This document shows positions 27,861 to 29,334 of a DNA stretch of 64,000 bases, piece after piece. The first letter of the stretch is position 1, and every line of letters begins with the position of its first letter. The translations under genes and the position numbers were made by a program. The stretch lies in the NCBI RefSeq assembly GCF_054482525.1, contig NZ_CM137006.1; one strand, 5' to 3'. Below the pieces are notes generated by a model. The model saw nothing but the letters and a program-made list of their open reading frames with translations. It was not told the DNA's origin and did no database searches.

Positions 27861-27880
27861 GTAGGCCGGATAAGGCGTTT
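27861..27880. repeat. left half of a REP palindrome split by the IS insertion
   Basis: gtaggccggataaggcgttt abuts the IS left end; pairs with 29313..29334 to reconstitute GCCGGATAAGGCGTTTACGCCGCATCCGGC. Confidence 0.7.
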
Positions 27881-27912
27881 TGAACTGAACCCCAAAACCT
27901 GGACAGTTTCAG

Positions 27913-28635
27913 TTAACCGGCTTTTTGATGCTCAGTCCGGTATTCTACCGGACTGAGTCCCCCAAGACTGAGTTTTATTCTTTTTTGATTCCAGTAAGTT
28001 ATGTATTCGTTAACGGCATTTTCCAGCTCTTCTACATTTCTGTAGTCCCGGCGATAGTACATTTCTTCTTTCAGGTGACCAAAGAAGTTCTCCATTACCG
28101 CATTATCAAGGCAGTTGCCCTTGCGCGACATGCTCTGCACTAACCCTCTGTCCGCCAGGGCGGACTGATAACTTTTTATCCGGTAATGCCATCCTTGATC
28201 ACTGTGGAGCAGCGGTTTCTCCCCTTCAGCAAGGCTTTCCAGCCCCTTATTTAACATCCGCTTCACCAGCTCCTCTGTAGGCCTGCAGGCCGTTTCCCAC
28301 GCCACGATTTCCCCGTTAAACAAATCAAGTATCGGGGACAGGTACAGTTTTTGTCCGCCAGCCCTGAATTCGGTGATATCTGTCACCCATTTCTCACAGG
28401 GAGCTTCCGCTTTGAACTGCCGCTGAAGGATATTTTCTGCAGCGAGTCCCATATTTCCCCGGTAAGACCGGTATTTCTTCAGGCGCACAGGAGACTTCAG
28501 GCCGAGCTGTTGCATCAGTTTTCGCACCGTTTTGCCACTGAACTTAAGACCTCTTTTCTGAAGCTCACAATGGATCCGCCGGTACCCATAACATCCCCGG
28601 TGTTCATGGAAGATGGAGGCTATGAGCTGTTTCAC
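27913..28635 (-). CDS. IS3-family transposase OrfB (DDE catalytic domain), expressed as OrfAB fusion via -1 frameshift
   Basis: 240-aa ORF with rve integrase-core motifs (HSDQGWHY, MSRKGNCLDNAVMENFFGHLK); frame continues upstream toward the slippery site. Confidence 0.85.
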   Translation of the reverse strand: MKQLIASIFHEHRGCYGYRRIHCELQKRGLKFSGKTVRKLMQQLGLKSPVRLKKYRSYRGNMGLAAENILQRQFKAEAPCEKWVTDITEFRAGGQKLYLSPILDLFNGEIVAWETACRPTEELVKRMLNKGLESLAEGEKPLLHSDQGWHYRIKSYQSALADRGLVQSMSRKGNCLDNAVMENFFGHLKEEMYYRRDYRNVEELENAVNEYITYWNQKRIKLSLGGLSPVEYRTEHQKAG

Positions 28636-28739
28636 ATCAGCATACTTGTCCTTAGCCTTCTGCAGTGACAGCTGGTAGTACAGCGTGCTTCTGGCCAGCC
28701 CTGCAGCCTTTAACAGGTCAGACTGGCAGTGTCCGCACC

Positions 28740-29261
28740 TCAGGCTCCGGATGACTTTCGTTTTTTCTCCAGCTCCTGGCGCTTTTTTTCCAGGAGATGC
28801 TCCTGCATGGCTTTCAGATATGCATTTTCTGCGCGAAGATAACGCAGCTCATTCTTCATCTCTTCCGGCGTCATGTTTGCCTCGTTTTCATGGGTATCAT
28901 CAGAACGGGTCATGCTTTTCTCCTTCCTGCGCCTGATAAAGGCCTCATTACCAGATTTGCGGTAGCCTTTTATCCAGTTTTTAACCGTGTTGTGGCTGGG
29001 AATGTTAAACCGGGCAGCTACCCGGGGTAGAGACTCAGAATGCCCGAGAGCATAAAGAACCACGCAAAGTTTATCTTCAGGAGAATAGCTACGCTTGTGT
29101 CTGCAATCCAGTGCCCGAGGACCGTGAAGAAGAAAAAGATTAATCCAGTGTGAGAGGCTGGTGTGAGAAAGTTGAAAGAGTTTTGCCGTAGAAATGATGC
29201 CTGCATGACCAGCCAGGTAGTGATTTACAGCGGCAAGTTTTACTTCAAATGAATGTTTCAT
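28740..29261 (-). CDS. IS3-family transposase OrfA (HTH plus leucine zipper)
   Basis: ORF track 28740..29270 (GTG); ATG at 29261 gives MKHSFEVKLAAVNHY...; coiled-coil C-terminus LRYLRAENAYLKAMQEHL. Confidence 0.85.
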   Translation of the reverse strand: MKHSFEVKLAAVNHYLAGHAGIISTAKLFQLSHTSLSHWINLFLLHGPRALDCRHKRSYSPEDKLCVVLYALGHSESLPRVAARFNIPSHNTVKNWIKGYRKSGNEAFIRRRKEKSMTRSDDTHENEANMTPEEMKNELRYLRAENAYLKAMQEHLLEKKRQELEKKRKSSGA

Positions 29262-29312
29262 AAACTGCACCTTCAGATGTCAGATTATGTCCAACATTTG
29301 GGGTGCAGTTCA

Positions 29313-29334
29313 GTTTACGCCGCATCCGGCACCT
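29313..29334. repeat. right half of the REP palindrome split by the IS
   Basis: gtttacgccgcatccggcacct immediately right of the IS. Confidence 0.7.

Follow-up and report, generated by a model that had tools for sequence, protein, structure and literature searches.

An intact IS1397 copy in the loop of a palindromic unit between cyuA and yhaL

REPs, or palindromic units, are imperfect palindromes of ~35 bp, of the GCC(G/T)GATG...CATC(C/A)GGC type, that are extragenic and highly repeated. Two reports describe IS1397, of the IS3 family, as specific in its insertion for REPs, the palindromic units of BIMEs (PMC1525189; PMC3184786), and the former, citing Wilde et al. 2003, names the transposase as the determinant of this specificity (PMC1525189). 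We analyzed a stretch of 64,000 nucleotides (the window) that carries such an insertion. Almost certainly, the cyuA-yhaL BIME received an intact and probably active IS1397 (IS3 family, IS150 group) in the loop of its second palindromic unit by transposition, which duplicated GTTT. This finding is already known in kind: it is a textbook target-specific insertion sequence in its known niche.

Many complete Escherichia coli genomes have chromosomal copies that match the window element along all of its 1432 bp with 100% identity; RefSeq names these copies "IS3-like element IS1397 family transposase," and it is from this annotation that the element takes its name here. At the same cyuA-yhaL site in PCN033, RefSeq annotates IS1397 with a "programmed frameshift." By ISfinder convention, an element counts as the same as the reference if its nucleotide identity exceeds about 95%. 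Judged by its identity to the RefSeq copies, the window element is IS1397 itself, already described in E. coli, and not just IS1397-like; a first reading made from the sequence alone (the sequence-only reading) had used the latter term, and the match extends to the length and the palindromic-unit target.

As shown in Table 1, the element has the features of the IS3 family, namely frameshifted orfs, a DDE/rve core, TG...CA repeats, and a 3–4-bp target duplication. Its terminal inverted repeats (TGAACTG...CAGTTCA) are 25 nt long and imperfect, with 21 of 25 positions matching, and the terminal 25-mer occurs once in the window versus 0 occurrences expected by chance. In the zero frame of orfA, the slippery heptamer lies in the context GAA AAA AAG (28788–28782, minus strand); the second (orfB) frame reaches 27913, and a −1 slip at the heptamer would give a 449-aa OrfAB. 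Pfam analysis of OrfAB returned two HTH_28 domains, HTH_21, and rve (E = 7e-21), plus rve_2 and rve_3, with the catalytic residues D295-59-D355-35-E391 followed by K398. The orfB frame scored 330 bits against the NCBIfam model NF033516 "IS3 family transposase" (cut-off 160), and the exact OrfAB protein is recorded in many genomes. The sequence-only reading was exact in the span that it gave for a 1432-bp IS3-family element, and the A-AAA-AAG site that it had assigned to orfA/orfB is indeed in frame with orfA; the terminal repeats, which it had put at about 24 bp, are present but are 25 nt long and imperfect.

Table 1. Features of the IS1397 copy and of its insertion site (positions in the window; a point marks features without a strand)
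Feature	Position	Strand	Basis
First REP (palindromic unit) of the cyuA-yhaL BIME, intact, GTGCCGGATGCGATGCTGGCGCATCTTATCCGGCCTAC	27790..27830	.	Inverted repeat I9; conserved in empty sites
Target REP, left half GTAGGCCGGATAAGGCGTTT, including one duplication copy	27861..27880	.	Inverted repeat I10; empty-site comparison
Target-site duplication GTTT, left copy	27877..27880	.	Single copy in the WP4-S18 empty site
IS1397, complete, 1432 bp	27881..29312	-	100% identity to annotated IS1397 copies; RefSeq annotation of the same site in PCN033
orfB-side terminal inverted repeat (IRR), TGAACTGAACCCCAAAACCTGGACA	27881..27905	-	Inverted-repeat search (I1)
orfAB fusion transposase, 449 aa	27913..29261	-	HTH_28 x2, HTH_21, rve; D295, D355, E391, K398
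orfA, 173 aa, HTH_28 x2	28740..29261	-	Reading-frame and Pfam analysis
Programmed −1 frameshift heptamer A-AAA-AAG	28782..28788	-	orfA zero frame; RefSeq "programmed frameshift" note
IS1397 5' leader	29262..29312	-	RNA fold; putative function
orfA-side terminal inverted repeat (IRL), partner of IRR	29288..29312	-	Inverted-repeat search (I1)
Target-site duplication GTTT, right copy	29313..29316	.	Empty-site comparison
Target REP, right half GTTTACGCCGCATCCGGCAC	29313..29334	.	Inverted repeat I10; empty-site comparison

The insertion lies between cyuA (plus strand) and yhaL (minus strand). These genes are convergent, and no gene is interrupted while one REP is split, so that the annotation of the neighbors agrees with the location first proposed for the element; the transposase gene has the same orientation as yhaK-yhaL. 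Two palindromic units stand here 30 bp apart and inverted relative to each other, and the second is the target of IS1397. Each is an imperfect palindrome, extragenic and highly repeated (the REP part of the empty-site query was found at a median of 26 places per genome), and together they are a BIME in the 3' region common to the two convergent genes. This BIME is polymorphic between strains (window 27790–27880 and 29317–29334; L003, L004, and L005), with a one-REP short form in ST131, a two-REP form in K-12 and in this window, and a long form in STN0717-20 that has three REPs and a duplication of 79 bp. The linker between the REPs (27831–27860) contains CAATTTGTTGATG, which we take to be close to the IHF-site consensus; the unit would then be a candidate of the BIME-1 (IHF-binding) type.

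Joined to each other, the flanks of the element read GTAGGCCGGATAAGGCGTTTACGCCGCATCCGGCAC; as DNA, this sequence folds at −12.2 kcal/mol into a hairpin that has a TTTA loop and a stem of 7+4 bp with its usual internal mismatch. The window without the IS and without one GTTT reads GTAGGCCGGATAAGGCG-TTTA-CGCCGCATCCGGCAC, and the nearest empty site, in strain WP4-S18-ESBL-07, matches this reconstruction base for base. Because a real empty site is identical to the reconstruction, the 4-bp GTTT is a genuine duplication of the target. It takes in the last base of the stem and three of the four bases of the loop; therefore, the insertion point is within the loop but one base away from the exact dyad center. 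The sequence-only reading had noted gttt on both sides (27877–27880 and 29313–29316), had proposed that the flanks reconstitute a REP, and had named the empty site as the place to check this, and on all these points the WP4-S18-ESBL-07 sequence agreed with it. Neither outcome that it had named as counting against it, an IS without REP specificity or joined flanks that form no palindromic unit, was observed. Its placement of the element at the exact center of the palindrome holds for the loop but not for the dyad itself. Of 5426 complete E. coli genomes, 5387 have the site uninterrupted and 8 have it occupied; three of the 8 (PCN033, SCU-102, and 19KM1776) are 100% identical across the junction. 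With so few genomes having it in common, the main use of the insertion is to mark strains.

Independent copies of IS1397 were collected through the exact OrfAB protein, through best matches in complete genomes, and by scanning species-representative genomes and metagenome contigs for exact termini, and junctions were kept only if their 40-nt ends matched IS1397 with at most 3 mismatches. When the best hit per genome was used, 7 of the 8 fetched were the same trmL/cysE insertion, and the species-representative genomes held only three exact terminus matches, one of them on a 209-bp "Chryseobacterium" contig. In 21 of 22 distinct flanks, representing about 16 independent sites, the arm motif ATC[AC]GGC starts 8–12 nt from the IS end; we estimate its chance rate at about 0.003 per flank. 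As to whether copies genome-wide all lie in REPs, a check proposed at the outset, this was so for every sampled flank except that of L078, the lone junction without a REP arm. The insertions at ygcP/ygcQ (duplication TTGA), trmL/cysE (AAT), mntH/ypeC (GCTA), caiE/caiF (TGG), L117 (AAC), and others all lie in the middle of a palindromic unit and have duplications of 3–4 bp, as does the window insertion at cyuA/yhaL (GTTT). IS1397 was found in both orientations relative to the unit, and units with GCCGGAT-type and GCCTGAT-type arms are both used. Insertion into the central part of the palindromic units of BIMEs, which defines IS1397, was thus what we found. A degenerate terminus pattern also returned candidates for IS1397 outside REPs; these were rejected as mostly relatives by their 40-nt ends and protein identity.

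An association of this kind might also arise by selection, if insertion were random and only harmless insertions in extragenic repeats survived. Genomic surveys do show surviving insertions only, and the window insertion is indeed harmless. However, selection leaves unexplained a constant position within a 35-bp repeat, with the arm 8–12 nt from the IS end in all but one of the flanks; REPs do not make up most intergenic DNA; and experiments cited in two reports describe specific transposition into palindromic units (PMC1525189; PMC3184786). We consider selection a very improbable source of the pattern. Still less probable is that the window holds a different REP-associated IS, for example ISKpn1 (IS3 family, Klebsiella) or IS621 (IS110 family). 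Both of these target REPs too (PMC1525189; PMC3184786), but the window element is identical throughout to RefSeq-annotated IS1397; its DDE/rve transposase and its frameshift are both absent from the IS110 family; and IS621 inserts 3' of the REP, outside its inverted repeats (PMC3184786), whereas the window element is in the loop. Least credible of all is that the two halves of the palindrome are part of the element and move with it, its true ends lying further out and no REP being targeted: any flanking inverted repeat can resemble two hairpin arms, but the REP at cyuA-yhaL is uninterrupted in 5387 genomes, REP variants differ between IS1397 copies, both orientations occur, and the duplications directly adjoin TGAACTG and CAGTTCA.

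Of the 5426 complete E. coli genomes, 3485 had some match to IS1397, and in 1707 a copy reached at least 80% of its length. Nearly all places were chromosomal (7605 of 7612), and their number per genome ranged from 1 to at least 40, with a median of 1. In the plasmid collection, a full IS1397 copy on a genuine plasmid was not found; the three full-length matches there are records of 0.7–4.9 Mb. Identical copies stand at several loci, and the insertions are polymorphic between strains. The window copy is intact and, to judge from its identity to other copies, probably active. At the upper end of the range, E. coli BH100 (NZ_CP024650.2 / NZ_CP025251.1) has at least 40 places matching IS1397, compared with the median of 1, which suggests a burst of transposition in the BH100 lineage.

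Fragments of the element were also seen. K-12, BL21(DE3), and roughly 1800 other genomes retain, as their only IS1397 sequence, 65 unannotated bp from its orfB-side end (95% identity). In K-12 MG1655, this remnant lies between yhhI/ISEc1 and yhhJ (L153, 601–680); its outer side adjoins a REP half, TAAACGCCTTATCCGGCCTA, and its inner side the ISEc1 transposase gene. Escherichia albertii NBRC 107761 (L020, 13133–13158) has an exact orfB-side terminus of IS1397 without an orfA-side partner at the expected distance; the flank, CCGGATCATCCGG, is not a standard E. coli REP, and this terminus may be a remnant or a rearranged copy. On the 209-bp contig NZ_MVAG01000238.1 (L022, "Chryseobacterium mucoviscidosis," low coverage), an IS1397 end is joined to an E. 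coli-type REP half; most likely, this contig is a contaminant from E. coli.

By analogy with the IS3-family elements IS911, IS2, and IS150, OrfA would be the default product of IS1397, and the OrfAB transposase would be made by −1 ribosomal slippage at A-AAA-AAG. Transposition would follow a copy-out-paste-in route through a circular intermediate with abutted ends, and staggered strand transfer would produce the 3–4-bp duplication. When the IRR-IRL junction of such a circle was modeled, no convincing sigma-70 promoter was seen in it (best score 8/12). In the leader RNA, nt 1–11 of the IS pair with nt 41–51 (−31.5 kcal/mol, z = −3.8, with 0 of 200 shuffles folding as well). In transcripts entering from yhaL, this predicted pairing would cover the putative ribosome-binding site directly 5' of the orfA ATG, and the hairpin thus probably shields the orfA start from yhaL read-through transcripts.

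The degenerate terminus pattern mainly recovered other elements, whose termini, TGAACTG[A/C]ACCCCAAAAGTTGGACA, are almost invariant over 25 nt. Their OrfAB proteins have 37–56% identity to that of IS1397 and fall into at least 7 distinct types. These relatives were found at metagenome loci (L023–L142), in Alistipes, Neisseriaceae, and other bacteria, with complete copies at L026, L041, L043, L046, L067, L077, L109, L123, L127, L129, and L134. One type belongs to Alistipes, and another is flanked by a variant of the Neisseriaceae DNA uptake sequence, GGTCGTCTGAA; the target hairpins in Neisseriaceae include inverted pairs of DNA uptake sequences.

The flanks of the relatives are not REPs but resemble halves of intrinsic terminators; in the target, the two arms of a GC-rich stem enclose a short loop, with an A-run before the first arm and a T-run after the second. 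Read outward from the IS, positions 1–5 of the flanks are AT-rich, positions 6–12 are GC-rich, and positions 13–18 are about 60% T. TTTT occurs within nt 6–26 in 65 of 96 distinct outward flanks versus 14.7% of background positions (p about 1e-31), and in these 65 flanks the T-run starts about 10–15 nt from the IS end. The target was reconstituted for 15 distinct complete copies, 14 of them from relatives and one from IS1397 (L117); a loop-centered stem of at least 8 bp was present in 8 of the 15 versus 0.96% of background positions, a score that undercounts hairpins with long or off-center loops. Three more targets (L026, L067, and L123), which score low, fold well into hairpins with longer loops.

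The empty site of the Alistipes element, GAAAAGGGGAAG-ATCA-CTCTTCCCCTTCTTTTTT, lies in a gap of ~25 nt between two convergent genes and is a perfect hairpin with a T-run (L156, 2771–2860). It is direct proof that the stem arms belong to the target DNA. The loop of this hairpin has received two independent insertions in opposite orientations (occupied in L150, L154, L157, and L161). At the same site, L158 carries GATCAATCACTC, that is, both copies of the duplication without the IS, which looks like a footprint.

Since the relatives lie in terminator-like hairpin loops, REP targeting may be a special case of a hairpin-loop preference of the whole clade. We propose tentatively, and with rather less than even confidence, that IS1397 belongs to a cross-phylum clade of the IS150 group with this preference and that its targeting of REPs is how an older habit, directed by structure, appears in enterobacteria. 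In the literature searched, whose coverage of insertion sequences is incomplete, no description of terminator-loop targeting by IS3/IS150 elements was found, and such targeting may be recorded elsewhere; the nearest report is a preprint on terminator-like sequences upstream of insertion sequences in general. The preference may be new, and it is the only part of this work that may deserve follow-up. If the clade does read hairpin loops and not sequence, this would explain how its members spread without gene damage and why IS1397 is almost never on plasmids, and the conserved ends and divergent transposases would make a tractable system for studying how a DDE transpososome reads DNA structure.

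Among the known systems, REPs are likewise targeted by the IS110-family elements IS621, ISPpu9, and ISPpu10 (PMC1525189; PMC3184786; PMC12288879). These have an unrelated IS110 recombinase and neither terminal inverted repeats nor a frameshift, and they insert beside the REP loop, whereas IS1397 inserts in it. ISKpn1 of Klebsiella pneumoniae, which likewise belongs to the IS3 family, inserts in palindromic units too (PMC1525189); by its description, it is distinct from IS1397, with another host and another type of REP. IS150 and ISSau2 share with IS1397 a large OrfA (at least about 173 aa), a slippery A6G site, a DDE spacing of about 60/35, and a K six residues after the E. Their termini begin TGAACTGCACCC, as in IS1397 (ISSau2 primers, PMC5771124), and hairpin or REP targeting by them is not reported in the literature searched. 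From IS1397 of E. coli (IS3 family, IS150 group), the window element has no detectable difference: it has the same RefSeq annotation, the same 1432 bp, terminal repeats, and frameshifted orfAB, and the same 3–4-bp duplication upon insertion into the loop of a palindromic unit. What sets this copy apart is its site between cyuA and yhaL, a rare one, occupied in 8 of 5426 genomes.
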